Part shown: positions 1 through 21,206 of the stretch, piece after piece
Layout of the letters: every line of letters starts with the position of its first letter
Position numbering within the stretch: position 1 is the stretch's first letter
The notes under the pieces: generated by a model
The model's input: the letters and a program-made list of their open reading frames with translations, nothing else
What the model was told of the DNA's origin: nothing
Databases searched by the model: none
Made by a program: the position numbers and the translations under genes
Origin: Candidatus Eiseniibacteriota bacterium
Lineage (GTDB): Bacteria > Eisenbacteria > RBG-16-71-46 > JABDJR01
Assembly (NCBI GenBank): GCA_963762255.1
Contig: CAVXKA010000001.1
Coordinates: forward strand, 1,248,001-1,312,000
Length of the DNA: 64,000 nt
Direction of reading: 5' to 3'

Positions 1-294
1 ATCCGTCTTGCCCGATTCAAACTCGCGGCGGTGAGCGGCCAGGATCCGGGTCAGCAGTTTGTGCTCGATGCGGTGGGTCGGCAAGTCCGGGTAGCCGATC
101 CGAGCCATGAAGGCCTCTTCATCCGCGAAGTGCCGGGAGGCATAGTTCAACACCTCGTCGAGCGCCTCTTCGTTCCCGGCCCCGTCATTCGAGTCCATGG
201 TCGCGACCAACTCGATCAGCTTCCTGTGCTGCGAGTCGATCTCGTCGACCCCGATGGAGAAGACAGCCTGCCAGGTGATGCGTTGACGATCCAC
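1..294 (-). CDS. Bacteriohemerythrin (3' end runs off window)
   Basis: Manual minus-strand translation from GTG 294: MDRQRITWQAVFSIGVDEIDSQHRKLIEL...YALRHFADEEAFMARIGYPDLPTHRIEH. Contains the W-x4-IG-x3-ID-x-QH, HF-x2-EE-x2-M and H-x3-H hemerythrin motifs. Purine-rich RBS (GAAAGGGG) upstream. Not in the ORF track. Confidence 0.9.
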   Translation of the reverse strand, partial: MDRQRITWQAVFSIGVDEIDSQHRKLIELVATMDSNDGAGNEEALDEVLNYASRHFADEEAFMARIGYPDLPTHRIEHKLLTRILAAHRREFESGKTD

Positions 295-514
295 GGTCCA
301 GAACACCCCTTTCTTGGTTCCACGGACGCGGCCAGGGGGGGATTCTAGACTATTTTAGTCCGATTTGGGGCCGGGACTTAATTGGGGGTGGCCGGGCGTG
401 ACGCATCTGTCCCGCCGGCCGCCCCCCCCTCGTCGGTTGACACGCGCGCGGCTAGAATGACGCCCGGACAAGCGAATCTAGGCACCACCGTCTCGTTCAC
501 AGGAGGTCGCCGAG

Positions 515-2095
515 ATGACAGAGCGCGAACCCCAGGACGACGCGGCGCAACCACCGGCTCGGGGCGTCGAGGGTCCCGGGAAGCCCGGGAGCGCGCGTCA
601 GCTCCGTGAGTCCGATCTCCGCGTGATCCTCGAATCGACCACCGATGGAATCCTGGCCGTCGACGATCGGGGGACCACGATCACCATGAATCGGACGTTC
701 GCCGAGATGTGGCGGATTCCACAGCTCATCCTCGACACCGCGGACGACGACGCTATGCTCGGATTCGTCCTCGATCAACTGGTCGATCCAGATGCGTTCC
801 TCAACAAGGTCAAGGCGCTCTACGGCACGACCTCGCTGGACATGGATACTCTGTTCTTCAAGGATGGGCGCGTCTTCGATCGGTACTCCGCGCCTCTGCT
901 CCAGGATGGCGCCGCCGTCGGCCGTGTGTGGTCCTTCCGGGACGTCACCGAACGCCGCCTGCTGGAGGCGGAACGGTTCAAGACCCAGAGGCTCGAAGCC
1001 ATCGGCGTGCTGGCGGGGGGGATCGCCCACGACTTCAATAACCTCCTGCAGGGTGTGTTCGGCTACATCTCGATGGCCAGGCGACGGATAGCGCCTGAGG
1101 ATCCCGCTCACGAGCTGCTCGGGGAGGCTGAGAAGGCCCTGGAGAAGTCGGTCAGTCTCACCGCCCAGCTTCTCACCTTCTCCAAGGGCGGGAAGCCGGT
1201 TCGAAAGCGGATGGCTCTGCGGGCGGTGATCGAGGACTCGGCGAGGTTGGCCCTGAGCGGTTCGCGCTGCGATCACCGGTTGACCGTAGCCGCCGATCTC
1301 TGGCCGGTGGATGCCGACGAGGGGCAACTCGCGCAGGTGATCCAGAACATCGTGCTCAACGCGAGCGAAGCCATGCCCGAGGGCGGAACCGTGGAGGTGT
1401 CCGCCGACAACGTGGAGCTGTCCTGGAGGAGTCATCCGCTGCTGCCGGAAGGTGGGCGATTCGTCCGGATCGCGATCCGGGATACCGGCTCCGGCATGTC
1501 GGAGCGCGACCTGACCCGCGCCTTCGACCCGTACTTCACGACCAAGCAGCATGGGAGCGGCCTCGGTTTGGCGACCTCCTATTCGATCATCAGGAACCAC
1601 GGGGGGACGATCGAGGCGGCATCCCGAGAGGGCGTCGGCAGCACCTTCACGATCCACCTCCACGCGAGCGACCTGCCGGTGGTTCCACCCTCTCCACGGA
1701 AAGAGCCGTCTCCGCTCAGGAGAGCCAAGATTCTGGTCATGGACGATGAGCCCGCCATCCGCGACGTGGTGGGGGACATGCTGACCGTCCTCGGGCACGA
1801 CGCGGAGTTTGCCGAAGACGGAGCGGAGGCGATCGAGCTGTATCGCCTCGCCAATGAGCGAGGCGCCCCCTTCGACTTGGTCATCCTGGACTTGACGATT
1901 CGCCGCGGTATGGGTGGCCGCCAGACGATAGCGAAGCTGAAGGAGATGGATCCCGGCGTCGTCGCGGTGGTGTCCAGCGGATACTGCGACGATGCGGTCG
2001 TCGCGGAGTACGCGGCATACGGTTTCCGCAGCTTCCTTCCCAAGCCCTTCGATCTGCAGGAGCTCCGATCGCTTCTGGGAACCGTGCTAGAGTGA
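515..2095 (+). CDS. Cytoplasmic hybrid sensor kinase (PAS-HisKA-HATPase-REC)
   Basis: H-box AGGIAHDFNNLL, N-box QNIVLNASEA, G boxes DTGSGM / PYFTTK / GSGLGL, C-terminal receiver (ILVMDDE...ILD...KPF). RBS AGGAGG. Confidence 0.93.
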   Translation: MTEREPQDDAAQPPARGVEGPGKPGSARQLRESDLRVILESTTDGILAVDDRGTTITMNRTFAEMWRIPQLILDTADDDAMLGFVLDQLVDPDAFLNKVKALYGTTSLDMDTLFFKDGRVFDRYSAPLLQDGAAVGRVWSFRDVTERRLLEAERFKTQRLEAIGVLAGGIAHDFNNLLQGVFGYISMARRRIAPEDPAHELLGEAEKALEKSVSLTAQLLTFSKGGKPVRKRMALRAVIEDSARLALSGSRCDHRLTVAADLWPVDADEGQLAQVIQNIVLNASEAMPEGGTVEVSADNVELSWRSHPLLPEGGRFVRIAIRDTGSGMSERDLTRAFDPYFTTKQHGSGLGLATSYSIIRNHGGTIEAASREGVGSTFTIHLHASDLPVVPPSPRKEPSPLRRAKILVMDDEPAIRDVVGDMLTVLGHDAEFAEDGAEAIELYRLANERGAPFDLVILDLTIRRGMGGRQTIAKLKEMDPGVVAVVSSGYCDDAVVAEYAAYGFRSFLPKPFDLQELRSLLGTVLE

Positions 2096-2161
2096 TCGAA
2101 GAGTCCATGCGTGCGTTCCCGCGGCGCATATTCCAGCCGCTGGAATCGCAAAGGAGGAATC

Positions 2162-2863
2162 ATGCCGCAGGCAAAGGACGGCTGCGTCAAAGCCGCGCGC
2201 GGACCGATAGTCGCTGAATCGGGTGCGCGCGATGCGACAGAAGCCGCATCATTCCGGGAGGTGACCATGATACGAGCACAGGTCGGCCGGGAAGCCCCCG
2301 ACTTCGAGGCGAACGCCTTCGTGGGCAAGGAGGGGTTCAAGCCGATCAAACTATCCGATCTCAGGGGCAGGTGGATCGTTCTCTGCTTCTACCCCGGCGA
2401 CTTCACCTTTGTGTGACCCACCGAACTGGCCGCGGTCGCGGCCCGTTACGGTGAGCTGAAGAAGCTCGGCGTCGAGGTGCTTGCCGCCAGCACGGACAGC
2501 CGTTTCGTGCACAAGATCTGGCAGGAGGAGGAACTCTCCAAGATGCTGGACGGCGGTGTGCCGTTCCCGATGCTCTCGGACGCGGGAGGCAAGATCGGTG
2601 ACCTCTATGGTGTGTACGATTCCATGGCTGGTGTGGACATCCGAGGACGGTTCATCATCGATCCGGACTTCGTCATTCGGGCCATGGAGGTTCTCACTCC
2701 GGAAGTGGGGAGGAACCCCGAGGAGTTGATCAGACAGGTGAACGCCTTTCAGCATGTCAGGGCCACCGGAGAGGTAACCCCTTCCGGTTGGCAACCGGGT
2801 CAGCCCACGCTGACGCCCGGTCCGGAGCTGGCGGGCAAAGTCTGGAAGGTGTGGAAGCCCTGA
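2162..2863 (+). CDS. prxU: Selenocysteine-containing peroxiredoxin (AhpC/PrxU type); UGA at 2414-2416 read as Sec
   Basis: ORFs 2111-2416 and 2477-2863 are in one frame. [15 protein letters not shown] puts UGA at the peroxidatic Cys of the AhpC motif FTFVCPTE. RBS AAGGAGG before ATG 2162. Confidence 0.93.
2420..2452 (+). promoter_or_regulatory. Putative bacterial SECIS hairpin of prxU
   Basis: GGCCGC-GGTC-GCGGCC stem-loop (2428-2443), extended by ACCG.AAC/GTT.CGGT pairing, starting 12 nt after the UGA. Confidence 0.7.
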
Positions 2864-2891
2864 TCGTAGGAGGCTGTTCGCACCGATGACG

Positions 2892-2930
2892 GCAGGCCGG
2901 GCCGGACCACAATGTCCGGCCCGGTCCTGC
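2892..2930 (+). terminator. GC-rich hairpin downstream of prxU (no U-tract)
   Basis: CCGGGCCGGAC-cacaat-GTCCGGCCCGG, a perfect 11-bp stem. Confidence 0.5.
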
Positions 2931-2964
2931 ATCGTTCGCGAGCGGCTGCGATATACTCCCGCGA

Positions 2965-3969
2965 ATGTCCTGGACTCCCGGTCTCGCGCAGGCCCCGCGG
3001 AAGATTCTGCTCATCCAGCTCCGGCGCATCGGGGACGCGGTCCTGGTAACCCCGGCGCTCGATGCGCTGCAAGAGGCGTGGCCCGAGGCCGAATTGCATC
3101 TCCTCACCGCGCCGCCGGTGGAGCAGCTTTTCGAGGGCGACTCGCGTTTGGAGCGCGTCTGGGTGCGGCCTTCGCGCCTGCGTCTTCCCGCGCTGGCCAT
3201 GGCGCTGCGCGGCGCGCAGTTCGATCTCGCCTTCGACTTTCAATCCGCCCCGCTGACCGCCCTTCTGGCTCTTGCCACCGGCGCCTTCACCGTGGGGTTT
3301 CGTAGGCGGTGGCGGCACTATCACCGAGCCGTGGAATTGCAGCTGCATCAGGGGTCTCAGTACGCCGCGGACCACAAGCTCGATCTTCTGCGCGCACTGG
3401 GTCTCAAGCCGCTCTCTCTGTTGCCTCGACTCGCGCACCGCGCGAAAGACATGACTCCCTGGAGCGATCTGCCTTCGGGACCCAAGGTTGCGCTGATTCC
3501 GGTGAGTCCATGGGCGCACAAGCGCTGGTCGGCGGAGGCGTTCGCCGAGACTGCGCGGCTCCTCCACGAGCAGACCGGCGCCGTGTTCGTCGTGGCGGGG
3601 GGGCCGGGGGAGGAGACCGCTCTGCGCGAGGTCGCGGATCGCCTCACCGACGTGCCGCACCGCGTGCGCGCGTTCGGACCGCTGCGCGATCTTGCCGCCT
3701 TCCTGGCCGGAGCGGATCTTTACCTGGGTAACGACAACGGTCCCCGACATATCGCGCTTGCCCAGGGCGTGCCCACTATCGCGCGATTCAGCCGCGACAA
3801 CCCCACGCACTGGACGCCGCCGTCCGATCCGCGGCATCCCGTGATCTGGGACGCGTCCCACGTGCGGGGGCGCGCGGTGCGGGGGGATCTCATCATTCTT
3901 CCCGAGGATCCGATCGCCGTCGCGCGGGCCGCCGCGGATCTATTGCGCCTCACCAAGGAACACGCATGA
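2965..3969 (+). CDS. Glycosyltransferase family 9 (heptosyltransferase-like)
   Basis: ILLIQLRRIGDAVL N-terminal motif, HKRW, YLGNDNGPRHIALAQGVPT typical of GT9. Confidence 0.9.
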   Translation: MSWTPGLAQAPRKILLIQLRRIGDAVLVTPALDALQEAWPEAELHLLTAPPVEQLFEGDSRLERVWVRPSRLRLPALAMALRGAQFDLAFDFQSAPLTALLALATGAFTVGFRRRWRHYHRAVELQLHQGSQYAADHKLDLLRALGLKPLSLLPRLAHRAKDMTPWSDLPSGPKVALIPVSPWAHKRWSAEAFAETARLLHEQTGAVFVVAGGPGEETALREVADRLTDVPHRVRAFGPLRDLAAFLAGADLYLGNDNGPRHIALAQGVPTIARFSRDNPTHWTPPSDPRHPVIWDASHVRGRAVRGDLIILPEDPIAVARAAADLLRLTKEHA

Positions 3970-4727
3970 AGACGATCATCATCGCCGCCGGTCAGGGGTC
4001 GCGCCTCTGGGAGACCACGGATCGCGTTCCCAAGACGCTGCTTCCGCTCGGCAATGGCACCGTCCTTTCGAGGATCGTGACCAATTTTGCAGCGGTGGGG
4101 GTGAACGAGTTCGTGGTGGTCGTGGGCTTCCGCAGCGAGTTCATCGTCGAGTACATCGAGCGGAACAGTCACTTCGGCAAGCGGTTCACGATCGTGGAGA
4201 ATCGGGAGTGGGAGCGAGGGAACGGGATCTCGGTGCTGCGCGCGCAGGCGGCGCTCGCCCCCGGCGAGACCGCGCTGCTCTCCATGTCGGATCATCTGGT
4301 GAGTTCAGTTGCGCTGGCGCGGATCAAAGACGCCCCCGGCGATCGGAACCTGCTCTTGACCGACGACCGCATCGCGGAGGTCTTCGACCTTGACGACGCC
4401 ACCAAAGTGAAGGCCGAGAACGGCACGATCGTCGACATCGGGAAGGAGCTGGCCGACTACAACGCGCTCGACTGCGGGATCTTCCGGATCAACGCGCGCT
4501 TCTTCGCCGCGCTACGCGAGCAGATCGCGCAGGGGCGCGAGAGCATCTCGGACGCGGTGCAGGTGCTGGTGCGAAGCCGCGACATGGGAATCGTCGAGTT
4601 CCCCGCCGACGCGTGCTGGATCGACGTGGACACCCCTGAGGCTTACCGGCATGTTCTGGAGCACCTCGATATCTTCGACGCTCCCGCCGCTGTTTCGTCG
4701 CGGCCGCCCGTCGCGAAGCCCCGATGA
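3966..4727 (+). CDS. Nucleotidyltransferase (LicC/phosphocholine or sugar-phosphate cytidylyltransferase-like)
   Basis: IIIAAGQGSRL...PKTLL signature and WIDVDTPE C-terminal motif. ATGA overlap with the upstream gene. Confidence 0.88.
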   Translation: MKTIIIAAGQGSRLWETTDRVPKTLLPLGNGTVLSRIVTNFAAVGVNEFVVVVGFRSEFIVEYIERNSHFGKRFTIVENREWERGNGISVLRAQAALAPGETALLSMSDHLVSSVALARIKDAPGDRNLLLTDDRIAEVFDLDDATKVKAENGTIVDIGKELADYNALDCGIFRINARFFAALREQIAQGRESISDAVQVLVRSRDMGIVEFPADACWIDVDTPEAYRHVLEHLDIFDAPAAVSSRPPVAKPR

Positions 4728-5004
4728 CCCGCATCAAGCCTCTGATCAAGATCGGTTTCCTCTACCACAAGGCGGCGTTCGATCCGCTCATCGACCTCTT
4801 TCTGGCCGATGATCGCTACGACGGCTACTTCGCGCTCGATGAAGAGCGCGTGCGGCGATTCGGTATTACTCTATCGCCATCTCGCGAAGAACATGGATAC
4901 CCGCTACGAGATCTTCGTGGGGGGGCAGTACCGAGTGGACCGCATCCGCGAGTCGGGCGCGCTGGGGAAGAGCGAGATCCACCTCGCAGGGCTCCCCAAA
5001 CTGG
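4724..5004 (+). pseudogene. 5' remnant of the TagF-like glycerophosphotransferase gene (copy 1; internal deletion, frameshift, truncation)
   Basis: MTRIKPLIKIGFLYHKAAFDPLI matches the start of 12970-14118. The 180 bp equivalent to 13111-13290 is replaced by 'ATTA' at 4865-4868. Similarity ends near 5004. Translationally coupled (ATGA) to the NTP-transferase. Confidence 0.85.
4869..4957 (+). repeat. 89-bp direct repeat, left copy (partner 11189-11277)
   Basis: CTCTATCGCCAT...GAGTCGGG is identical to 11189-11277 except one base (4921 G vs 11241 A). Confidence 0.9.
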
Positions 5005-5148
5005 CCAGTGGAGACGTGAGAACGGCGATCCGGTTGTCAGCGGGCAGAGACTGACCCTATACTCGGGAACGGATCGAAGGACTACTGAGGGGCCGTAGGG
5101 CGCCGGGATGCCGTTTGTTCTTCTTATCCCCCGCGCAAGGAGAGTGTC

Positions 5149-6324
5149 ATGAGGCATTGGCTCCGAATCCATTCATTGCTGATCCCATTACTCGTGTTCT
5201 CCATGACTGTTGACTGGAGTTCCGGTCGTGCCGAAGCGGGTCAACCTTCTTGCAAGTACAAGTGGAAGGTAGCGCTGATGCGGACGCCTCAGCCGCATCT
5301 AAACGCTCGTCGGGCGTTTGCCGCTGCGTACTACCGCGTGCAGCAGGAAGATCGAAACGCTAGATTGAAATTGGCTATATCTGGGAACAGCTTGCTCATG
5401 GGAAGCTCAAACGGCGAAGTTAGATCCATCAAGACAACGGAGTGGATCTTCTATTTCACGAAAAGCGACGGCGCGACGATGGAAGCGCGCGTGAACTTGG
5501 ACGGCATTGTCCGTACCACGGCATCCAAACGGGATTTCGCGAAGGAACCCGACATCCCAACAACATGGATATCCGATGTTGACGCCGAATCGTGCCTCAG
5601 TTTGTTTAGTCAAAGCCTTGGCGAACAAAGGCTTGTCGTGGGCGACTCGTCGCTGCCCGTCCCGGTTCTTCAATGGCAGAAATTGGGCGGCAACCAGACG
5701 CTCTACTGGTTACTGCCGTATATGGTCAAACGTAAGAGTTACGGCGTTGATGCAATGATGGGGGATGTCCTCGAATTAGGGTCTGGTCAGGTCGTCTGGG
5801 CATCACCGCGACCGCATTACCAGCCTCAACTCCGTGCTTGGCAAGAACCTAGCCGTCTTATAACAGACTACGCCGGAATTGAACGCGACCTCACTACGCT
5901 TGCTCGGGACTCGAGTATTAAGGCGAAAGCGATTCGTGGGTTAATTAGCTGTATTCTCGGGCGTCTTCTAGAGGGCGAAGAGATCTTGGAGGACGTGGCC
6001 GTTGATCGACCAACGAACGCGGACGTGCGGAGTATTCTAGCTGAGATTTCCTTCTACCGTATGGCGTACGATCAGGCGATCCGGCAATACAATGGGGTGG
6101 TCGCGATAGATCCATCCCCTAAATATTTCGAGACACGAGGGAACGTTCTTGCGATGAGCGGAGTCATCGACGAGGCGGTATGCTCTTTCGAACGCACGCG
6201 CGCCGTGAATCTGGACGTGGATGACGATATCGCGTTCGCACGAGGCGACGGAAGTTTCATGTCGTTTCGAGACATCACATTGTCTTACAACGGCGTTACA
6301 TACGTCTGGCACCACGAGTACTAA
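5149..6324 (+). CDS. Secreted hypothetical protein: signal peptide, PepSY-like region, C-terminal TPR-like helices
   Basis: Hydrophobic N-terminus ending AEA-G; YWLLPY...GVDAMMGDVL PepSY-like end; AEISFYRMAYDQAIRQYNGVVAIDP and RGNVLAMSGVIDEAVCSFER are TPR-like. RBS AAGGAG; lower GC than flanks. Confidence 0.7.
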   Translation: MRHWLRIHSLLIPLLVFSMTVDWSSGRAEAGQPSCKYKWKVALMRTPQPHLNARRAFAAAYYRVQQEDRNARLKLAISGNSLLMGSSNGEVRSIKTTEWIFYFTKSDGATMEARVNLDGIVRTTASKRDFAKEPDIPTTWISDVDAESCLSLFSQSLGEQRLVVGDSSLPVPVLQWQKLGGNQTLYWLLPYMVKRKSYGVDAMMGDVLELGSGQVVWASPRPHYQPQLRAWQEPSRLITDYAGIERDLTTLARDSSIKAKAIRGLISCILGRLLEGEEILEDVAVDRPTNADVRSILAEISFYRMAYDQAIRQYNGVVAIDPSPKYFETRGNVLAMSGVIDEAVCSFERTRAVNLDVDDDIAFARGDGSFMSFRDITLSYNGVTYVWHHEY

Positions 6325-6335
6325 GGGATAACTCG

Positions 6336-6923
6336 GTGCGCTTCGAGAGGACGACAATTCTGGCCGGAGCTGCCGTCTTGAATCGAGAAACCAAAGATGA
6401 AGATATCGACGCGGAAATTAGTCTATTGCAGATAACGGCCGGCGCGGGAGTAATTCGATGTGACGCGCGGTACTCAACGCTCGCTGGGTTGTGTATAGTG
6501 CTTATTGACTTAAGCAAGGATGATCGTGCTGTACGCAAACGGGACGTGGGGACAGAGTGTGTCGCCTATATCGACAACTGGGCTGTCGCCTGCCACAACG
6601 ACGTGCACTCTAACGCTACGGGACTCGAACGTGACATGGCCACGGGTGACACTCATGTATGCGGCGCAACGGGGCAACTTAATAACCACGCAACTGCCGA
6701 TGGAACTTGCGGCCTCAGTGAACATGGCTTCGCACAAGGGCGACGCTGCGCTCTTACCGGCAGCGCAGAAGTGGAGATAGCCCGTCGTCTAACTGCTGCC
6801 GGACCAGGGCTGTGCTGGAGTAGCCAACATCCGAGCTTGGACGGATCGCGGCGATACGGGGCTGTGTATAGCCTGGAGCATGGGACCAAAGAAGATTGTT
6901 TCGCTGCTCGGTGGTCGACGTAG
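6336..6923 (+). CDS. Hypothetical Cys-rich protein (195 aa, 9 Cys)
   Basis: Stop-free 195 codons in a lower-GC stretch. Tiles between the neighbours with 11-nt and 13-nt gaps; AAGGGA upstream. No family recognised with confidence. Confidence 0.5.
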   Translation: MRFERTTILAGAAVLNRETKDEDIDAEISLLQITAGAGVIRCDARYSTLAGLCIVLIDLSKDDRAVRKRDVGTECVAYIDNWAVACHNDVHSNATGLERDMATGDTHVCGATGQLNNHATADGTCGLSEHGFAQGRRCALTGSAEVEIARRLTAAGPGLCWSSQHPSLDGSRRYGAVYSLEHGTKEDCFAARWST

Positions 6924-6936
6924 GTAGTGAGGTCGT

Positions 6937-8505
6937 ATGGAAGGCCACGTATTTATCAGCTACGCGCGCGCGGATGCCTGGGCGGTCTTGCCTCTCGCGG
7001 AGGAACTGCGGGCGCGGGGCATCACAGTCTGGGTCGACAGCCGGGACATCCCGGCGGCTGCACGGTGGTCATCCGAGATCGTCGATGCCATAGGCAACGC
7101 GAGCGCAGTTCTTCTGTGCCTATCCAAGAGGGCGGTGGCGTCTTCCCACGTTCGCCGGGAGCTGTCAGTGGCGGGAGAAACTTCGAAGGCGATTGTGCCC
7201 ATATATCTCGAGCCCACTGTCCTCCCACCAGATTTCCTTTATTATCTCACCGGAATCCAGGCCATCAACCTGGCGAACGAGCCTCCCGGCGCGGCGGTCG
7301 ACCGAATCATCAAGGTCCTGCATGAAGCCCAGGCGCCGATCCGGAAACGCTTGCCGGCACCGAGCCCGACGCCGGCGACCTGGCCTCTCGCCCGACCACG
7401 CCGAAGTTGGCTGCGGGTGACGGCTGCTTTCCTGGTGGGCCTGGCCATCGTGGTCGCGCTTCTCCTTCACGCGGCCGGCTACCTCGACATCCGATCGCCG
7501 TGGAGCGCGACCCAGGAACCAGAATTGCGATCAAACCAAGTCTTCAAGGACAGGTTCATCTGGTTGAAGCCTCCGCCGCTTCTCAAGGGCCCCTTCTACA
7601 ACTGCTCGAAGTACATAATCTCCTTCGAAATGGGCAACGAGCAGAGCGCGCCACTAGTCGTGCCGAAGATCGATTTCTACTTCGTGAATCCGGAGGTGCA
7701 GAACCGTATCCGCGGGTTCCCGGAGATGCTCCACGGGAGCTTTCTTCATGGCACGTATGAGAACCCAGGTAGGGGATACTGGCTGCCGAACGAGGCCCAA
7801 TCCGTGGAGATGGAGGCGGAATTCCTGCCCCGTTCCGTGCACGTTTACGTGTACCACTCCGGGACGGCGCAGCCATCCTATTTTGAAGTGCCCCTGAGTA
7901 GGGAAGAGGATGCAGAGTACTGGCCCGGACCGAGGACGGTAGAGAAGGGTAATCTCGAGAGCGGCATTGACGGAGGTGCGGCCTACCGGCAGGCGGCGAC
8001 CGTGGCAGAAGGGCTTCTCGACGCACCCCGGTTGTCCATGGCGGTTCCCATGAAGACCGCGACCACTAAGCAAGGTAACGGACTGGATATCGTCGCGATC
8101 TCTTCGTGGGCATTCCTGTTCGGGGAACCGACCGGGCAGAGGGGGGTCTGGGTGAACGTGGGTGATGGCGAGCCGCGGGGAAGCGTGATCACACCGGAAT
8201 CGGATCCGGAGTATCGAGAATTTCTGAATTATGGGTCCGTGAGGCCCATTCGCGTCGGCACCCGGGAGGCCGTTGCGACCGTCAGCCAGGCCGGTATGAT
8301 CTACGACAACTCTTGCGGGTCGTTCTGGCTCGATCCTCGCGGAGTAGTTGATGGCGAGGAGCATCCTGTGTGGAAACTCCCTTACGTAGGAGACGACTAC
8401 ATGACCCTGTTTGTCGATGCGTTCGACGGGAAGGTCCTTGACCTCGACATCGATTATCAGCAGACTGGGAAGGGCCCACCATGGAAATACAATATCAGAA
8501 GGTAG
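6937..8505 (+). CDS. TIR-domain single-pass membrane protein with a large extracytoplasmic domain
   Basis: VFISYARAD...VWVD...WSSEIVDAI...SSHVRRELSVA (TIR with the conserved Glu), Pro-rich linker, TM helix VTAAFLVGLAIVVALLL, C-terminal VWKLPY...FVDAFDGKVL PepSY-like end. Confidence 0.88.
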   Translation: MEGHVFISYARADAWAVLPLAEELRARGITVWVDSRDIPAAARWSSEIVDAIGNASAVLLCLSKRAVASSHVRRELSVAGETSKAIVPIYLEPTVLPPDFLYYLTGIQAINLANEPPGAAVDRIIKVLHEAQAPIRKRLPAPSPTPATWPLARPRRSWLRVTAAFLVGLAIVVALLLHAAGYLDIRSPWSATQEPELRSNQVFKDRFIWLKPPPLLKGPFYNCSKYIISFEMGNEQSAPLVVPKIDFYFVNPEVQNRIRGFPEMLHGSFLHGTYENPGRGYWLPNEAQSVEMEAEFLPRSVHVYVYHSGTAQPSYFEVPLSREEDAEYWPGPRTVEKGNLESGIDGGAAYRQAATVAEGLLDAPRLSMAVPMKTATTKQGNGLDIVAISSWAFLFGEPTGQRGVWVNVGDGEPRGSVITPESDPEYREFLNYGSVRPIRVGTREAVATVSQAGMIYDNSCGSFWLDPRGVVDGEEHPVWKLPYVGDDYMTLFVDAFDGKVLDLDIDYQQTGKGPPWKYNIRR

Positions 8506-8664
8506 CGAGAATCTCCCACACTGTCCCCGTCTCAACCAATAGCAGAATGAGCCAATAGTTGATGATTTGATTCTGCTATGAGCTTATCTTTATCCGGACA
8601 CGAAACTCTGCCCCCTAATCTCCCGGGGGACTCACTCGTTAGCGCTGTTGCCCGCGTCTACTTG

Positions 8665-8690
8665 TCGTTCCCAGGCTCGGCTTGGGAATG
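8665..8690 (+). repeat. REP-like short palindrome
   Basis: TCGTTCCCAGGCTCGGCTTGGGAATG resembles the TCGTTCCCAxGCTCxGCxTGGGAATG REP-type motif. Single copy in the window. Confidence 0.45.
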
Positions 8691-8762
8691 TCCGGCATTC
8701 CGCGAGGATCCTGCGCGAAGTTTTTATTGGAAAATCACCCGACAGCGTCTATCATAAGCGAT

Positions 8763-9587
8763 ATGCATTATCAATTGATATCGGTCGTAGTCTGGCTGAC
8801 GGTCGCCGCGGCCGGAGCCTTTGATTTCAGCGGCTACACCGTCATTTCCCCGGAACTGAAAGGTGTTCGGCGCACCAACCGGGAGAGCTACCTGCTCAAC
8901 AAGCGGGACCCGCTGTTCTACGCCGTGTCGGGCTACCGCCTTTCTGACGGCCTGGCTTGCCTACCCGCGACGCTCGGTACACTCGAACCCGAGGTGGCGG
9001 TGCGCATGTACGGCACCAACGATGCCTGGTCCGGCGACACAATGTATTTTGCGGCGCTGTACGCGCAGTACCTGGACACGCTGCTGGACCGGGGCGTGGT
9101 TCCGGTAATCAGAACCATCCCGCCGTTCCGGTGGTACGGCGGTGACACCCTGGACTTTGATTCAGGCACCGTGATCTTCAACCGCCTTATCCGGCGGGTG
9201 GCAACACGTAATAGCGTGGTGCTGGTTGATGTCTGGCAGGCCTTTATGGATTACACCAACGGCCGGCCGTTCACCGACACTTGGTACGATGACCGTTACA
9301 TCCATCCGTCAGAATGCGGCGCAGCCGGGCTGACCGACACGACGGCACCGGCCTGCGGCCTGGGCATCCGCAACGCGGTGACCTGGCAGGCGGTCAACAA
9401 GGTCTATCGGATCATCATTGAGAACGGCATGCCGGACGCGGGGCGGTCTGACGGGATGGTGGCGGCAACCATACGGCGGCCACGCATCGGTGTTATCTGG
9501 ACCAGTCAAGTTCTATCCACGGGACTCTGCGTGGTGCGGGTGGAGGGGGCTGGCAGCACTTTTGTCAAGAAAGGGTTCTGCCCATGA
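8763..9587 (+). CDS. SGNH/GDSL hydrolase-like secreted protein lacking block I (possible pseudogene)
   Basis: Signal-like N-terminus, MYGTND (block III) and DDRYIHPS (block V), but no GDS nucleophile motif. Confidence 0.6.
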   Translation: MHYQLISVVVWLTVAAAGAFDFSGYTVISPELKGVRRTNRESYLLNKRDPLFYAVSGYRLSDGLACLPATLGTLEPEVAVRMYGTNDAWSGDTMYFAALYAQYLDTLLDRGVVPVIRTIPPFRWYGGDTLDFDSGTVIFNRLIRRVATRNSVVLVDVWQAFMDYTNGRPFTDTWYDDRYIHPSECGAAGLTDTTAPACGLGIRNAVTWQAVNKVYRIIIENGMPDAGRSDGMVAATIRRPRIGVIWTSQVLSTGLCVVRVEGAGSTFVKKGFCP

Positions 9588-10255
9588 CCGGCACTGCGGT
9601 TGACCCGAAGATCGCCTACCACCTGCGGGAACTGGCCATTGCGCTTGACCCCTTTTCACCGCACCACATCCTGCCTCCCATTACCGGCAGCGAGCAGCAG
9701 GTGCTCGACGTGGGGTGCGGTATCGGGCAGACATTCGCAGCCATGCCGGCCCTGCATGGGCGGCAGCTGGTCGGGCTGGATATAGTCCGGCCGTGTCTGG
9801 CGTACGGGAAAAAGCAGCACGAATATGTTGCGTTCCTGCAGGGGGGGGCGGTGAGCCTGCCGTTCCGGGAGAGCAGCTTCGACCTGGTCATTGCGCGGGT
9901 GAGTCTGCCGTATACCAATACGCCGCGGGCCCTGGCCGAGATCGGGCGGGTGCTCCGGCCTGACGGTAAACTCTGGTGCACACTGCACCCTGGGTCGAAA
10001 GTGCTGAAAGACTGGCTGCGCTCGCTCGTCACGCTCAAAATAAGAGACATAGTTTTTCGCGCATATGTGCTGCTGAACGGTGCGGTATTCGCCCTGACCG
10101 GGCGGCAGTTCCCGTTCCCGGTAAATGGGCGATACGAGTCGTTCCAGACGGTGCGCGGCATGCGCGCGGCCCTGGGCCGGGCGGGGTTCAAGGAGATACA
10201 CATTGAACGCGGCGCGCATTTTGTCTGCACGGCGCGGAAGATGAGCGGCGGGTAA
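9584..10255 (+). CDS. Class I SAM-dependent methyltransferase
   Basis: VLDVGCGIGQ, LPFRESSFDLV, EIGRVLRPDG. Confidence 0.9.
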   Translation: MTGTAVDPKIAYHLRELAIALDPFSPHHILPPITGSEQQVLDVGCGIGQTFAAMPALHGRQLVGLDIVRPCLAYGKKQHEYVAFLQGGAVSLPFRESSFDLVIARVSLPYTNTPRALAEIGRVLRPDGKLWCTLHPGSKVLKDWLRSLVTLKIRDIVFRAYVLLNGAVFALTGRQFPFPVNGRYESFQTVRGMRAALGRAGFKEIHIERGAHFVCTARKMSGG

Positions 10256-10658
10256 GGCCAAGGAATTGATAACGTCTAGGAATTAATGATTTTCAGTAGT
10301 GAAGGATAGAGACAACTTGTTTTTTTTACTGAGCAAGGCCGAAGTGGCGGAGCCGACTCCCTGTCGGCGTCCGACCGAGTTAGGCGCCGAAACAAGGCCC
10401 TCTTTTTGTCCGCCGCATCCTGCGGCGGCCCCGTTATCTCGTTGCCAAGTTCCGCTTGACAACGCACGGTTGGTGCGGGCTCGCTCGCTCCTTCGCCCTC
10501 TGGCTGCGTAGTGCGTCACTTTGGCGCCTGTCCCGGGCGAAAGCGAGGGAGGCCCCGCAAGAAAAGTGGCTACCATCGTTGCCGTGGCCGATGCCACCGA
10601 GGCCGGGCTTACGAATATCAGCGTCGGGATACTGGTAATCAAATACCTGGCAACAAGT

Positions 10659-10690
10659 GCGGCACCTTTTGCTCGTCCAAAAGGTGCCGC
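10659..10690. repeat. Perfect 13-bp inverted repeat in a structured non-coding region
   Basis: GCGGCACCTTTTG-ctcgtc-CAAAAGGTGCCGC. Confidence 0.7.
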
Positions 10691-10989
10691 CAAAAGGACT
10701 CCCCCCGCGCATCCACCTCGGGAACTGGCCCGCCGGGGGCCTATTGTTCGTGAACGGGCTTCATCGCGGGTGTAGCTGTGAACACGAAGAACGGCCGGCC
10801 CCCTGTGGGCCAGTTCTTTTTCTTCGTGGATGCGAAGGGGGTGGGATAAGAAAGACAGTTCCTCAGGATACAGTCAACCAGGTATAGCCTTAGAGGCATT
10901 AACTGTTCACGATACGAAGGAATGTGACGTCGCGTATCGTTGCCGCGGCCGCGTTCACCCGATGTCCGCGAAAGCCTGGGTGATCGTCT

Positions 10990-11280
10990 GCGCGTGCGGC
11001 GGTTCGGGAGTGTCACCGGCCCGTTCCGCCCGCCGCTCCTGGACGAACTGGAGCGCAGTGGTTACCGATTCACCGACCGCAAGGACGGCTTGGACGTCGT
11101 GCTGACCGGCGATCCGCTTCTTGGCGCGGAGCGATACGGCGACACCCTTTGCTGCTTCTTGAACCACGGCACAGGGATCAAGAGCATCCTCTATCGCCAT
11201 CTCGCGAAGAACATGGATACCCGCTACGAGATCTTCGTGGAGGGGCAGTACCGAGTGGACCGCATCCGCGAGTCGGGTGC
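10990..11280 (+). pseudogene. Internal fragment of the TagF-like gene (copy 2)
   Basis: RVRRFGSVTGPFRPPLLDELERSGYRFTDRKDG...RIRESGA aligns to ~13092-13382 of the intact gene and includes the segment deleted from copy 1. Confidence 0.88.
11189..11277 (+). repeat. 89-bp direct repeat, right copy (partner 4869-4957)
   Basis: 88/89 identical to 4869-4957. Confidence 0.9.
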
Positions 11281-11312
11281 CATGGAGGCGCACCCGTCCG
11301 CGCTGTCAGACC

Positions 11313-12656
11313 TCAGAGGCGCACGGAGTCACTGGACAGCTCCTCCATCGCGCCGTCATTCACGCGGTACACCTTCACATCCGTCCGCGAGTCGTCGCCG
11401 GCCTCCTGCGGGGTGATCACCACGAAGTTCCTGGTGGTGGCGTTCGGGTTGTGGTCAATCCAGGTGCCCGAGTTGGCGTAGATGGTCTTCAGCCCGGAGT
11501 GGTTCTCGCCGGCGATGATCCTAGCCGCGTGGGTATGGCCGAAAACCACGAGCCGAACTGCGGACTCCGGGTTTGCGAAGTACTGGAGGTCCGCCTGAAC
11601 ATCCGTGCCGGCGGCGGATGCGGCGTCGAGCAAGGCCTGCATCGTGGGAATGTGGACGGCGACGTGATTGATGGACTGCCGCTCGTCCCAGTTGTCCAGG
11701 GAGCCCCTGAACAGGTTCATGTCGATGAGTCCGCCGGGGGTCTCCTGGAAGGGTAAGAGGTCGTTGATGGCGTAGGTCTCGGTGAACCCGTCGATGTCGG
11801 TCAGGATGATCTCGTCATCGAAGGAGTTCTCGACGGGGAGAGTCGCTAGCAGGCTCTTCCAGATGTTCCAGTAGACATAGGCCAGCTCCTGGCTCGGTCC
11901 TCCTTCGACATTCGGAGTCACCTCGGCAATGGTATCGCCTGGCGTCCCACAGTGCTGCACCACGTGGAGGGTCGCGATGCGCGTGAAGAAATATCCCGGA
12001 GGCATGATGGAGCCAGGGGCGACATCGGCGTGGGAGAGTGGATCCGGGGCACAGAAGTAGTTGTAGCGGTGGCCATGTTCGATGGCGATCTCCGGGTGGT
12101 CCAGGGGGCTGTAGGTTCCAAGCCCCAGCACGTCGTCCCTGGCCTGGTGGATGCCGGGCAGAATGCTGTCGACGTTCTCGGCCGTGATGGTCAGATCATG
12201 GTTGCCGGGCACGTACGTGACCTGGATCTCCCCATCGGCGATGATCCGATTGACGGCGTCGATCACCTCGGGGTTGGCGACTGCGATCCGTCTGACGAAA
12301 TCGGCTTGATCCTGCCCTGCGTAGGTGTTGGTGGTGGCCGGGACGAACCACTCGTCCAGCATGTCGCCGGCGATCACCAGCTCGCGGACGCTGGCGGACT
12401 CCCCGATTTCGTCGAGGAAGTCCACAAGCGCGCCCTGGTTCTCCTTGCACTCGGCGTACGCGAGATCGGCGCCCAGATGGATGTCGCTGATGACGACGAT
12501 CTGCGTCCTGTCGCCGCCGTGGTTCAACGGCCCGAACGGGCTCTCTCCGTCGCCGCATGAGCTCAGCACGACCAGGCCCGCCAGCAGCGGCATGCAAGAC
12601 AGCAGCGAGGCCCACGGCCATCGGGCGCGGGCGTTCCAGCTACGTGTCGGTTTCAC
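11313..12656 (-). CDS. Calcineurin-like metallophosphoesterase lipoprotein
   Basis: Lipobox LVVLSS-C; motifs SDIHLG, AGDMLD, PGNHD, EHGH, FGHTH, YANSGTW. Confidence 0.88.
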   Translation of the reverse strand: MKPTRSWNARARWPWASLLSCMPLLAGLVVLSSCGDGESPFGPLNHGGDRTQIVVISDIHLGADLAYAECKENQGALVDFLDEIGESASVRELVIAGDMLDEWFVPATTNTYAGQDQADFVRRIAVANPEVIDAVNRIIADGEIQVTYVPGNHDLTITAENVDSILPGIHQARDDVLGLGTYSPLDHPEIAIEHGHRYNYFCAPDPLSHADVAPGSIMPPGYFFTRIATLHVVQHCGTPGDTIAEVTPNVEGGPSQELAYVYWNIWKSLLATLPVENSFDDEIILTDIDGFTETYAINDLLPFQETPGGLIDMNLFRGSLDNWDERQSINHVAVHIPTMQALLDAASAAGTDVQADLQYFANPESAVRLVVFGHTHAARIIAGENHSGLKTIYANSGTWIDHNPNATTRNFVVITPQEAGDDSRTDVKVYRVNDGAMEELSSDSVRL

Positions 12657-12873
12657 TTAAATCTCACCTTTCATCTATCGCGACTCGCGAAGCATCTCGG
12701 CAGGGTTGGCGGCGTTGGAGTGGCAGATCCCCGGCCCGAAGCGAGCAACAACTAACTATCCTGCGCGACGCCGTCGACTACCACGCCACATCACTGGAGG
12801 TATCGACGGGAGCCTCGACGTGCTTTAGCCTCGCCGAAGACCCCTGCGTGAATCGAAGATGTGGGTTCCCGCC

Positions 12874-12930
12874 CGTCTCCTCGAACCCATCGGGGACATT
12901 CCCCCGGTCGAGTACGAAGAGGCATACTAG
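12874..12930 (+). mobile_element. IS3-family transposase C-terminal remnant
   Basis: Translates RLLEPIGDIPPVEYEEAY*, matching the typical IS3 OrfB end (RLLEPIGNIPPAExExxYY). No full element present. Confidence 0.7.
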
Positions 12931-12969
12931 CGGGGTCAGCGGGCGTCAGGATCCTCCCTCGGAGTCCAA

Positions 12970-14118
12970 GTGACCAGGACCAAGCTCCTCATCAAGATCG
13001 GCTTTCTCTACCACAAGGCGGCGTTCGATCCGCTCATCGAACTCTTTCTGGCCGATGACCGCTACGATGTCTACTTCGCGCTCGATGAGGAGCGCGTGCG
13101 CCGCTTCGGTCTCTTCACTCGCCCGTTCCGCCCGCCGCTTCTGGACGATCTGGAGCGCAGCGGCTATCGCTTCACCGACCGCAAGGACGGTTTCGACGTC
13201 GTGCTCACCGGCGATCCGCTCATCGGTCCGGAGCGCTACGGGGACACCCTGCGCTGCTTTCTCAACCACGGCACCGGGATCAAGAGCATCCTCTATCGCC
13301 ATCTCGCTAAGAACATGGACACCCGCTACGAGATCTTCGTGGAGGGGCAGTACCGAGTGGACCACATCCGCGAGTCGGGCGCGCTGGGGAAGAGCGAGAT
13401 CCATCTCGTGGGGCTCCCCAAGCTCGACTACCTCTTTCAGGGGCGCATTCCGGATCGCGCCACGCTCTTGAATCGCTGGGGCCTCGATCCGGCCAGGCGC
13501 ACCGTGCTCTTCGCGCCCACGTACAAGCCCACGTGCATGTATGACGTGAAGGATGCGCTCTTCGAGGCCACCCGCGATCGCAACCTCATCATCAAGCTCC
13601 ACCACTACAGTTGGATGGGCCGCTACGCGCCGCACCGACAGCATCGCATCTTCGAGACGCGCGTGAAGCGCTTCCCGCACGCCGTGCTCCTGCCGATGGA
13701 GGAGTACAACATCGTCCCCTACATGGCGGCGGCGGACACGCTCCTGAGCGAGGCGTCGAGCACGGTGTTCGACTTCCTCGCGCTCGGCAAGACCGGGATC
13801 GTCTACGACCTTCCCGGCGATCGCCTCACCCACAGCGACGGCCGCCCGATCCTCGAGGAGGACAACCGCGAGTTCTTGAAGGACGCGTTCGTGCACGTCG
13901 CCGCGCCGGGCGATCTGGCGGCCGGCATTGCGAGAGCCCTCGATCCCACTCCCGAGATGCGCGCCGCCGCCGATCGCGAGCGCGCCTACCGCTTCTTCGG
14001 CCTGGACGGGCACGCGAGCGAGCGGGTGAAGGCAAAGATCGAGGAGCTGCTCAGCGCGCGATCCCGAACCGCCGCCGCAGCCGCGCCGGAATCTCCACCG
14101 CCTCCCGAGCGCGCGTGA
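12970..14118 (+). CDS. CDP-glycerol glycerophosphotransferase (TagB/TagF) family protein, intact copy
   Basis: NHGTGIK, VGLPKLD, VLFAPTY, IIKLHH, ADTLLSEASS..FDF, DGHASER motifs. RBS GGAG before GTG. Confidence 0.85.
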   Translation: MTRTKLLIKIGFLYHKAAFDPLIELFLADDRYDVYFALDEERVRRFGLFTRPFRPPLLDDLERSGYRFTDRKDGFDVVLTGDPLIGPERYGDTLRCFLNHGTGIKSILYRHLAKNMDTRYEIFVEGQYRVDHIRESGALGKSEIHLVGLPKLDYLFQGRIPDRATLLNRWGLDPARRTVLFAPTYKPTCMYDVKDALFEATRDRNLIIKLHHYSWMGRYAPHRQHRIFETRVKRFPHAVLLPMEEYNIVPYMAAADTLLSEASSTVFDFLALGKTGIVYDLPGDRLTHSDGRPILEEDNREFLKDAFVHVAAPGDLAAGIARALDPTPEMRAAADRERAYRFFGLDGHASERVKAKIEELLSARSRTAAAAAPESPPPPERA

Positions 14119-15487: not shown

Positions 15488-15610
15488 GGAACCCGTCCCG
15501 ATGATACGGACGGGAGGTTTGGTTCAAGATAAAGAGTTTAGGACGACCGGAGGGGGGCCGTGAAGACCGCCCCTCGCGGACGCATCGAGGGTCTTCGGGG
15601 CAGGGCTCCG

Positions 15611-17905: not shown

Positions 17906-18016
17906 GCCGGTGTCCTCCGGGATGGGTGGATCGGGCCGGAAGACCGAGTCTAAGACGGTTGGGGATGCCGCGGAAAGCGCTCAGGCCCGCGCTGCTCGCA
18001 CTCGAGAATCCGGCCC

Positions 18017-18059
18017 TTGCTTCGCCTGTCTCCGCCCCATATACTACTCATGTGTTTGG
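18017..18059 (+). promoter_or_regulatory. Sigma70-like promoter with candidate SOS/LexA box 1
   Basis: TTGCTT(18017)-17 nt-TATACT(18040). CTACTCATGTGTTTGG at 18044-18059 overlaps the -10. Confidence 0.65.
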
Positions 18060-18109
18060 TACTCAATGAACCGGCAGACGGGCCGGAGGGCGGCCGGGAG
18101 GACGCGGAC

Positions 18110-18364
18110 ATGCGGCTCGAGCGACTCGACGAAGCGGTCAAGGTGCGGGCCGACTTCCAGGGCGGCACCATCATCCCGCTCCTCATCAAGCGGGGGAGCC
18201 AGGAGGTCAAGGTGAAGCGGGTCACCGCTCACTGGGAGGACCGGCGCGGCGCGCACAAGGTGCACTGCTTCTCCGTGCAGGCGGCGTCGGGGGACGTATA
18301 CCAGTTGGAGTTTCACAGCGGGGACCTCGTATGGAAGCTGAACTCGGTGATGCTGGACGGGTAA
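18110..18364 (+). CDS. Small DUF6504/ImuB-C-like beta protein
   Basis: MRLERLDEAVKV...VKRVTAHW...FSVQAASGDVYQLEF...WKL pattern. Overlaps the start of the Y-family polymerase. Confidence 0.6.
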   Translation: MRLERLDEAVKVRADFQGGTIIPLLIKRGSQEVKVKRVTAHWEDRRGAHKVHCFSVQAASGDVYQLEFHSGDLVWKLNSVMLDG

Positions 18365-19557: not shown

Positions 19558-19559
19558 CG

Positions 19560-19700
19560 GCGCGCACCGCTACGCGCGCGGCGGTGCGCGGGGTTCATCG
19601 CACCGCTACGCGCGCGCCCGTCGCCCTCGCCGAAGGGGCCCCCGCTTCGCGGCCCTTCGGACTGCGGTCGACGGGCGACGCGCTTCGCGGCGCACCCATT
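19560..19700. repeat. Cluster of GC-rich palindromes with a 17-bp direct repeat
   Basis: GCACCGCTACGCGCGCG at 19564 and 19600; hairpins CGCGCACCGC/GCGGTGCGCG and CCGAAGGG/CCCTTCGG. Confidence 0.55.
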
Positions 19701-19803
19701 CCACCACCGCCGACCCGCGGCGCCGCACGAAGCCGTGCCTGACGGGCGAACGCGAAGCGGCACAAGATCACCTGGGTGAGCGCCGGCCTGCTACCGTAGT
19801 GCC

Positions 19804-20529: not shown

Positions 20530-20593
20530 AGCGCGGCGTCGTTGCGCGGGTGGCACGGCGGTTCCAGGCCGTGCCGGCTCGAAGATGAGTGCG

Positions 20594-21175: not shown

Positions 21176-21206
21176 TACGCCCCGGCTCCCCCCGGAGATC
21201 CCGTCC

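Follow-up and report, generated by a model that had tools for sequence, protein, structure and literature searches.

How might a bacterial TIR domain be made to respond to events outside the cell membrane? Most characterized bacterial TIR systems detect infection in the cytoplasm. The question is raised by a locus in a window of 64,000 nucleotides (nt) from contig CAVXKA010000001.1 of a “Candidatus Eiseniibacteriota” genome (the source genome, G000), in which three open reading frames (ORF1, ORF2, and ORF3) follow one another on the plus strand; all coordinates are positions in this window. We favor, tentatively and with slightly less than even confidence, a reading in which ORF3 is an acquired, outside-sensing NADase receptor and ORF1 is a secreted, soluble co-receptor with a diverged PepSY-like module. 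Stated more generally, the locus probably encodes a membrane-anchored sensor of a novel type that bears a TIR effector, together with a soluble paralogous partner. The features concerned are as follows.

5034 to 5063, plus strand: promoter-like site TTGTCA-18-TATACT, about 85 nt upstream of ORF1, a consensus match alone
5149 to 6324, plus strand: ORF1, 391 amino acids (aa), ATG start
ORF1 residues 1 to 29, plus strand: signal-peptide-like N terminus (hydrophobic segment and AEA)
5314 to 5790, plus strand: tandem PepSY-like module of ORF1 (residues 56 to 214), from hhalign
5896 to 6210, plus strand: TPR-like tail of ORF1 (about residues 250 to 354), from TPR matches below the cutoffs
6336 to 6923, plus strand: ORF2, 195 aa, GTG start, nine Cys; an open frame whose coding is in doubt
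6937 to 8505, plus strand: ORF3, 522 aa, ATG start; predicted type II single-pass membrane protein with a TIR domain and an ectodomain
6949 to 7308, plus strand: TIR domain of ORF3 (residues 5 to 124), Pfam TIR_2 (PF13676)
7408 to 7482, plus strand: transmembrane (TM) helix of ORF3 (residues 158 to 182), from the model and the hydrophobic segment at residues 159 to 177
7537 to 7920, plus strand: ectodomain part 1 of ORF3 (residues 201 to 328), Ig-like/MG-like beta-sandwich, from structure search
7951 to 8451, plus strand: ectodomain part 2 of ORF3 (residues 339 to 505), tandem PepSY-like module, from structure search and the motif W-x-LPY...VDA-x-x-G

A preliminary description of this DNA had read an N-terminal TIR domain with a conserved Glu (VRRELS) from the translation of ORF3, and the profile and structure searches agree. 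Pfam TIR_2 matches residues 5 to 124 with an E value of 1.1e-23 (84.5 bits against a cutoff of 28). The VRRELS motif lies at 7150 to 7167 and the Glu75 codon at 7159 to 7161; phmmer against the PDB aligned VRRE(75)L of ORF3 to VHKEI of SARM1, the Glu of which we take to be the catalytic E642, and Glu occupies the Glu75 position in 17 of 17 aligned TIR_2 homologue rows. The AlphaFold2 model of ORF3, built from a 43-row alignment, has a mean predicted local distance difference test score (pLDDT) of 90.1 and places the TIR domain at residues 1 to 132, with a flavodoxin-like TIR fold and pLDDT values of 84 to 97 over residues 1 to 130. Foldseek searches of the PDB matched this domain to SARM1, AbTir, and Hydra TRR-2 with target TM-scores of 0.71 to 0.82, and further to plant TIRs and the SPARTA TIR-APAZ protein. 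All 15 PADLOC matches on ORF3 (from models that have no cutoffs) and both NCBIfam matches (far under their curated cutoffs) are confined to the TIR segment. The TIR domain of ORF3 is probably an NAD-cleaving enzyme, as judged from these alignments. TIR NADases are activated by oligomerization.

In a word-seeded protein search, ORF3 had 20 matches other than itself, all with PF13676 and covering at most 46% of the query; a full-length relative was not found there. Four TIR relatives that were fetched (P0004, P0005, P0009, and P0016) consist of a TIR domain and a TM segment followed by periplasmic “TolB-like”/TPR or FGE-sulfatase domains, and membrane-anchored TIR proteins with the N terminus inside (N-in) are therefore a recurrent, uncharacterized architecture.

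Indicators from the sequence place the TIR domain of ORF3 inside the cell and the C-terminal 340 aa outside. ORF3 has a single hydrophobic segment (residues 159 to 177, modeled as a helix at residues 158 to 182), preceded by a disordered linker rich in Arg, Lys, and Pro (residues ∼136 to 158) with RKR and RPRR motifs, and the model shows the C-terminal region of 340 aa folded from about residue 205. Lys and Arg together number three in residues 143 to 157 and one in residues 183 to 197. As its TIR domain begins at residue 4, ORF3 leaves no room for a signal peptide at the N terminus. It is the Arg and Lys before the TM helix, the lack of a signal peptide, and a family member fused to the periplasmic domain PG_binding_1 that argue for the inside placement of the TIR domain. 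Among those members of the ectodomain alignment (A1) that bear a TIR or DUF4062 head, exactly one TM segment separates head and ectodomain in six of six, and Lys plus Arg counts before and after it are 4/1, 5/0, 3/1, 4/3, 6/1, and 4/1; at least one hydrophobic segment precedes the ectodomain in 25 of 28 homologues. Thus, the one TM helix, the extracytoplasmic region of ∼340 aa, and the cytoplasmic TIR domain that had been proposed earlier are all upheld by the predicted topology.

The ectodomain was used as a query on its own (7489 to 8502) in an exhaustive search of 1.84 billion proteins. Its family comprised 31 representatives at an E value of ≤1e-3, ORF3 included, of which 12 were at ≤1e-10 and 8 at ≤1e-30. 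The four best relatives are 353 to 401 aa long, share 41 to 45% identity with it, and lack a TIR domain. The family domain, of ∼320 aa, follows a TM segment and has invariant P, W, W, and Y residues (W-x-LPY), all of which are kept in ORF3. In the five closest sequences, two Cys residues (C39 and C276 of the ectodomain) are also conserved and may form a disulfide. A Pfam scan of 29 members (28 homologues and the window ectodomain) gave no match to the ectodomain itself. As modeled, the ectodomain is a rare, previously undescribed, well-modeled domain family. Its profile was found only in the source genome among 206 genomes of the source phylum (the same set as the class), and a search for ORF3 in the same-genus genome G001 and the six further genomes of the family found nothing. 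The phylum to which the best homologue belongs, through a metagenome-assembled genome (MAG), gave two matches among 401 genomes, namely, the MAG itself and one weak partial match.

What varies within this family is the head. Among the 28 homologues, four carry DUF4062, two TIR_2, one PG_binding_1 (located before the ectodomain and after three TM segments), and one an alpha/beta hydrolase, the remainder having short tails; a profile search added two further DUF4062 forms. DUF4062 is presented in recent preprints as a TIR-like NADase domain in antiphage defense (10.64898/2026.05.01.722283, 2026.09.04.749371, and 2026.06.25.731849, in the text available). That TIR and DUF4062 replace each other on one ectodomain suggests effectors with equivalent roles. 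A word search of the main text of two of these preprints (10.64898/2026.05.01.722283 and 2026.09.04.749371) turned up no membrane-bound or extracytoplasmic DUF4062 protein, the word “membrane” having one unrelated use in one of them, and searches of the openly readable literature gave no description of an ORF3-type or PepSY-like ectodomain that bears a TIR or DUF4062 head. In the closest homologues (locus L010, 5779 to 6999; L011, 1590 to 2783; and L012, 5803 to 6990), a short cytoplasmic motif rich in Cys and His takes the place of the TIR domain ahead of the TM segment; it may be a small zinc-binding head.

The fold of the ectodomain was approached through a separate model (29 rows; pLDDT 93.3, predicted TM-score 0.87). 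A wide VIA-align search divides it into two parts, ectodomain residues 17 to 144 and 155 to 321. The former has many sandwich matches at Z scores of 8 to 9 (e.g., 4u48_A, with a Z score of 9.0 and a root mean square deviation [rmsd] of 2.7 over 100 residues) and a generic fold, and the latter matches 4exr_A (Z score of 9.0, rmsd of 4.4, 139 of 152 residues aligned); Z scores of ∼8 to 9 are only slightly over the usual background of the tool. 4exr_A is a putative lipoprotein of C. difficile, and 4EXR is given as the top HHpred match of the two-PepSY protein LanP in the available text of PMC9988556. Foldseek returned weak generic sandwich matches only, including weak partial ones to diphtheria toxin entries (receptor-binding sandwich), and a sequence profile search of the PDB with alignment A1 had a best E value of 0.17. 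Pfam PepSY (PF03413) fell short of its cutoff on ORF3 residues 473 to 502 (E value of 0.11, 13.3 bits against 24) and matched none of the 29 family members at an E value of ≤0.01; the module is therefore named PepSY-like rather than PepSY. The same source describes PepSY tandems as known extracytoplasmic binders, M4 propeptides as inhibitors, and UipA as a single-pass anchored, metal-binding PepSY protein that dimerizes by domain swapping (PMC9988556).

ORF1 had been proposed as a secreted partner of the receptor, and this description gains from a module common to the two proteins. ORF1 is plausibly secreted: a hydrophobic segment at residues 11 to 21 follows Arg/His residues, and AEA stands at residues 27 to 29, features read with no dedicated signal-peptide predictor. 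Residues 56 to 214 align by hhalign with the ectodomain profile over ORF3 residues 349 to 504, with a probability of 93.3%, an E value of 2.6e-7, and a score of 56.4. Sixty shuffles of the sequence reached at most a score of 21.9 and a probability of 1.5%, reversed ORF1 scored 15.4, and seven unrelated window proteins scored ≤17.4. ORF1 and ORF3 are accordingly linked beyond adjacency, since one module is homologous, if remotely. Toward the C terminus (residues ∼250 to 354), ORF1 has weak TPR matches, all under their cutoffs, and 10 of the 10 atlas neighbors listed are TPR clusters at 0.87. Of 60 related genomes, 16 gave weak matches to ORF1 (E values of 1e-5 to 5e-4), all within the TPR-like residues 241 to 369; ORF1 (P0001) had no match in the plasmid collection. 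A relationship of this tail to the TPR region of the TIR-TolB-TPR proteins was considered and rejected, as BLASTP of P0001 against P0005 was empty. An uncontrolled complex prediction of ORF1 residues 30 to 391 with the ORF3 ectodomain scored 0.01 against a mark of 0.32 and counts neither way.

The locus had further been described as a tight trio on the plus strand that includes a Cys-rich ORF. The coordinates, the common strand, and the gaps (11 nt between ORF1 and ORF2 and 13 nt between ORF2 and ORF3 in the ORF list) bear out the layout, and the open frame of 195 residues with nine Cys exists, but ORF2 has weak evidence for being a gene and no relatives. In favor of coding, a run of 198 codons was reached by only 23 of 5,000 composition-preserving shuffles of 6325 to 6936, ORF2 is the sole long open frame in the spacer and sits snugly between its neighbors, and a gene caller predicts it, as a singleton in the protein collection. 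The evidence against coding includes a codon score of −0.011, a G+C content that is lower at third codon positions (0.551) than at first positions (0.622), a frame plot that gives its frame no preference, and a recognition by a protein language model of 1248, compared to 2300, a value reached by 91 of 100 real families. ORF2 had no family match and nothing in the 60 related genomes, and no Rfam match was found in 4500 to 11500. ORF2 has roughly a one-in-three chance of being a real gene and is probably outside the proposed system. Two other accounts of the spacer were rejected: a frame-1 ORF at 6520 to 6780 that looked ankyrin-like by eye gave no Ank match in Pfam, which removes the case for a broken ankyrin gene, and a decayed gene beneath ORF2 in the frame of ORF1 and ORF3 would contend with ∼9 stops per 200 codons, near the random expectation.

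ORF1 and ORF3 have the same orientation and are probably cotranscribed. The promoter-like site at 5034 to 5063 matches 10 of 12 consensus positions, in a region (4600 to 9000) with five such sites compared to 1.6 ± 1.5 in shuffles. The sole terminator-like site found is at 7728 to 7740, within ORF3, and none lies between ORF1 and ORF3. Shine-Dalgarno-like sequences precede both genes (AAGGAG 6 nt 5′ of the ORF1 ATG and GAGG ∼4 nt 5′ of the ORF3 ATG). The low-GC stretch noticed earlier is evident in 500-nt windows, with a G+C content of 0.53 to 0.56 across 5001 to 6750 versus 0.63 to 0.70 across 1 to 4750, and in the individual ORFs, at 0.536 for ORF1, 0.566 for ORF2, and 0.606 for ORF3, the two upstream genes having 0.647 and 0.686. 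On a codon-usage score with a genome mean of 0.184 (standard deviation, 0.07), ORF1 has 0.053, ORF2 has −0.011, and ORF3 has 0.151; the codon usage of ORF3 is host-like.

How could such a receptor work? At rest, ORF3 would be held dispersed, possibly through pairing of ORF1 with its PepSY-like module. A trigger outside the membrane (a protein from a phage or a competitor, a peptidase, a metal, or an envelope perturbation) would shift the association of the ectodomains, the TIR heads would then cluster and cleave NAD+, and the cell would either stop growing (abortive infection) or receive a nucleotide signal. The anatomy of ORF3 with its conserved Glu and topology indicators, the homology between ORF1 and ORF3, the exchange of NADase-type heads within the family, and the insertion are established here; we infer NADase activity, activation by clustering, contact between ORF1 and ORF3, and a role in defense, and the mechanism is proposed because TIR domains generally act through oligomerization, TIR and DUF4062 are exchanged on this ectodomain, and its extracytoplasmic folds are of a binding type. 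If the proposal is true, the coupling of an NADase of the TIR/DUF4062 kind to a folded domain outside the membrane would mean sensing at the level of the envelope, and the locus would offer a small one- or two-gene system for studying outside-in TIR activation. It is a bolder and unlikely extension that the ectodomain family as a whole consists of outside-in immune receptors which sense at the envelope before genome entry, with interchangeable NADase heads and ORF1 as co-receptor or guard, in convergence with the Toll-like receptor (TLR) and interleukin-1 receptor (IL-1R). Regardless of function, the ectodomain represents a family for which neither Pfam nor NCBIfam has a model, and ORF1 appears to show its PepSY-like half as a free secreted protein.

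Several observations weigh against the receptor reading. About 20 of the 28 homologues have a short cytoplasmic tail only and no enzymatic head, which implies a role of the ectodomain that is independent of an NADase. The residue four positions before Glu75 is His, while SARM1 and two other TIR-bearing ectodomain relatives have Trp; His stands there in 11 of the 15 nearest TIR homologues and is typical for a membrane-anchored TIR subgroup. The ectodomain family is absent from the viral-contig, plasmid, and phage collections searched, there is no recognizable defense island, and PADLOC gave nothing specific in the ten flanking ORFs tested. An alternative is an envelope or environment sensor, in which the ligand of the ectodomain is a metal, a peptidase, or a wall component, the TIR domain signals or scaffolds in a housekeeping or stress response, and ORF1 is a periplasmic partner or buffer. 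Such a sensor would suit the characterized PepSY proteins, which bind metals or regulate peptidases according to the available part of PMC9988556. It would equally suit the family fusions to PG_binding_1 and alpha/beta hydrolase, a locus amid cell-envelope polysaccharide genes where defense neighbors were not found, and nearest TIR relatives that pair TIR-TM with periplasmic TolB-like/TPR or FGE-sulfatase domains. Against it, a downstream reader of a TIR product was not found nearby, both heads (TIR and DUF4062) are reported as NAD+-depleting defense effectors in the preprint text available, and the distribution, which is rare, patchy, and shaped by horizontal movement, is like that of accessory conflict genes; we consider this explanation rather improbable.

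A more skeptical explanation denies that ORF1, ORF2, and ORF3 form a functional unit at all: ORF3 would act independently of ORF1, and their adjacency would be incidental, produced as a variable polysaccharide locus recombined in cassette-like fashion. The co-occurrence that a three-gene module leads one to expect is lacking, in that the trio was not found elsewhere and neither ORF1 nor ORF2 has relatives, which counts against the receptor reading too. When 5.8 billion proteins were searched by word seeding, no homologue of ORF1 appeared, and ORF1 itself was the sole match among 5,943 candidates scored; its orphan status rests on that search and the 60 related genomes, the exhaustive HMMER search having covered the ectodomain. 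Also telling against our preference and in favor of separate histories, G+C content and codon usage are unlike between ORF1 and ORF3 (0.536 versus 0.606 and 0.053 versus 0.151, respectively). The insert that holds them is a mosaic bounded by three gene-fragment copies. Nor are neighbors conserved at the three loci with the closest ectodomain homologues, L010 from genomes and L011 and L012 from metagenomes, which share nothing by BLASTP and whose neighborhoods are unrelated (an integrase and a DpnII-like nuclease are near the homologue in L010). In two of these three loci an adjoining secreted or lipoprotein ORF may resemble the ectodomain, marginal similarities that we treat as leads, not findings: an upstream secreted ORF of 200 aa in L012 scored 25.6 by hhalign against the PepSY-like part, a value reached by 0 of 40 shuffles, and a downstream lipoprotein in L010 scored 25.9 against the sandwich part, with no shuffle control. 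We nevertheless hold the lack of a unit to be quite improbable, given a remote homology between ORF1 and ORF3 that is specific to the same module, a common strand with only the open frame of ORF2 between the two genes, one promoter-like site 5′ of ORF1, and no terminator-like site between them. The locus might, finally, be a decaying relic, recent foreign DNA with genes that are silent or nonfunctional. The apparently noncoding ORF2, the broken gene fragments in the flanks, and the weak codon adaptation of ORF1 are what a relic would leave, but ORF1 and ORF3 are intact and have Shine-Dalgarno-like sites, and ORF3 combines a pLDDT of 90 to 93 with host-like codon usage and all of the family-invariant residues; decay is very improbable.

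Does the proposed receptor correspond to a system already described? The usual partners of defensive TIR proteins (ThsA, CD-NTase, and Argonaute) had been noted as missing, and Pfam and PADLOC scans of the neighboring ORFs likewise found none nearby. For Thoeris, ThsB_TIR scored 17.3 bits, under its cutoff of 21.2, NCBIfam ThcB4 was far under its cutoff, and no ThsA-like match occurred in the Pfam- or PADLOC-scanned ORFs from 515 to 20556. For CBASS and Pycsar, the PADLOC TIR-TM match was weak (E value of 0.011), SAVED-TIR covered the TIR domain only, and no cyclase was found among the neighbors. For SPARTA, the PADLOC matches to Aga_TIR covered residues 4 to 134 only, the structural matches were confined to the TIR domain (whole-chain rmsd of ∼30 Å), and no Argonaute was found nearby.

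Individual parts of ORF3 do have counterparts. It shares the fold and the conserved Glu position with the NADase TIRs of SARM1 and AbTir but differs from them in carrying this domain on the cytoplasmic side, at the N terminus of a protein that spans the membrane once, and in having His for Trp four residues before the Glu. The TIR-TM-periplasmic proteins (TolB-like/TPR and FGE-sulfatase) have the nearest TIR domains (31 to 39% identity over the TIR) and the same N-in, single-TM layout with an S-x-HV-x-x-E motif; unlike in the TIR-TolB-TPR proteins, the ectodomain of ORF3 is a sandwich plus a tandem PepSY-like module, and the TPR-like segment of the window is on the separate, secreted ORF1. Of the tandem-PepSY extracytoplasmic proteins CD1622/4EXR, LanP, and UipA, the first (4exr_A) superposes on the two-lobe module of ORF3 with a Z score slightly over background, and UipA is likewise single-pass anchored with PepSY outside and dimerizes, as given in the available text of PMC9988556, in which no cytoplasmic enzymatic head is described for the tandem-PepSY proteins; ORF3 differs from these in its subthreshold Pfam PepSY match and its added beta-sandwich. 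The DUF4062 domain of the NIR, Swarozyc, and Evangelion systems occurs on homologues of the ORF3 ectodomain where ORF3 has a TIR domain, ORF3 itself being TIR_2. TLR and IL-1R share with ORF3 an outside sensor, one TM segment, and an inside TIR domain, and IL-1R has an Ig-like ectodomain and a co-receptor (PMC7075850, in the text available). Animal TLRs, however, are type I proteins with leucine-rich repeats (LRRs) and a C-terminal TIR domain, while ORF3 is type II with an N-terminal TIR domain and a nonhomologous ectodomain. The label “Toll-like receptor” given earlier can therefore stand as an analogy only, the topology being type II and the ectodomain not LRR.

How did the locus reach this genome? 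In a same-genus genome (G001, 75% complete; contig C314), the NTP-transferase gene is followed directly by a TagF-like gene and then by the imuB region, and the window contains this order in interrupted form, as the following correspondences and features show.

G001:C314 3 to 619: window 4238 to 4863, 79% identity
G001:C314 485 to 1570: window 12975 to 14060, 86.6% nucleotide identity
G001:C314 1647 to 2397: window 18040 to 18793, 88.7% identity
4725 to 5002, plus strand: TagF-like 5′ copy 1, truncated and lacking 181 nt internally; marks the left border of the insert
8682 to 9587, plus strand: GDSL-like hydrolase (Pfam), in the same insert
9584 to 10255, plus strand: S-adenosylmethionine (SAM) methyltransferase (Pfam); its PADLOC mad2 match is to a generic methyltransferase
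10990 to 11280, plus strand: TagF-like 5′ fragment copy 2; right border of the 6-kb subinsert with ORF1 to ORF3
11313 to 12656, minus strand: calcineurin-like metallophosphoesterase (Pfam), 447 aa, in the 1.7-kb part of the insert; no PADLOC match
12970 to 14118, plus strand: intact TagF-like gene (Glyphos_transf, E value of 3.4e-8, 33.3 bits against a cutoff of 22.1; codon score of 0.336)
14051 to 15487, minus strand: UvrD-like helicase, in a second insertion of ∼3.9 kb
15611 to 17905, minus strand: NorB-type nitric oxide reductase, in the second insertion of ∼3.9 kb

The empty site in G001 means that ∼8 kb (5003 to 12974) is inserted in the window relative to that genome, and the “insert” recognized earlier from its composition is thus substantiated as a segment bounded by partial duplicates of the TagF-like gene. 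As judged from this comparison, the ORF1-to-ORF3 locus is horizontally acquired. The insert has a 6-kb part (ORF1 to ORF3, the GDSL hydrolase, and the methyltransferase) and a 1.7-kb part (the metallophosphoesterase, on the opposite strand). The intact TagF-like gene is, on the gene order in G001, the ancestral neighbor of the NTP-transferase gene. In copy 1, 4725 to 4864 is 89% identical to 12971 to 13110 and 4869 to 5002 is 94% identical to 13291 to 13424, with counterparts at 480 to 619 and 801 to 934 of G001:C314; copy 2 is 88% identical to 13092 to 13382 and 82% identical to 602 to 892 of G001:C314. A direct repeat of 97 nt, 96% identical, is found at 4869 to 4965 and 11189 to 11285. Altogether, three TagF-like 5′ copies (two partial and one intact), 88 to 94% identical, flank inserted DNA, which suggests repeated recombination at the TagF-like gene. 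The empty same-genus site and the triplicated fragments of the target gene show how cargo enters a polysaccharide locus.

The neighborhood consists of cell-envelope polysaccharide genes (GT9, NTP-transferase, TagF-like, and GDSL hydrolase). No tRNA was found in 1 to 20000, and no integrase was found among the ORFs scanned. Two family-level relatives (G007 and G003) have only the GT9 gene in common with the window and are uninformative for synteny. The metallophosphoesterase had no match in five relatives when used as a query; calcineurin-like phosphoesterases are named among NAD+-depleting defense domains in the introduction of one of the DUF4062 preprints. Within the insert, some 730 nt (10256 to 10989) hold short ORFs only, with codon scores that are negative or near zero, and are probably noncoding or decayed.

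Beyond the insert, 14119 to 18039 constitutes the second insertion of ∼3.9 kb relative to G001:C314, in which 76 nt separate the flanks. Downstream, on the plus strand, 18331 to 24368 holds genes for an imuB-like Y-family polymerase and a dnaE2-like polymerase III alpha subunit, a mutagenesis-cassette pair. Upstream, also on the plus strand, the ORF at 2111 to 2416 matches AhpC/TSA profile positions 1 to 40 and that at 2477 to 2863 matches positions 63 to 123 together with 1-cysPrx_C; the pair resembles a single peroxiredoxin gene that has been split or frameshifted.

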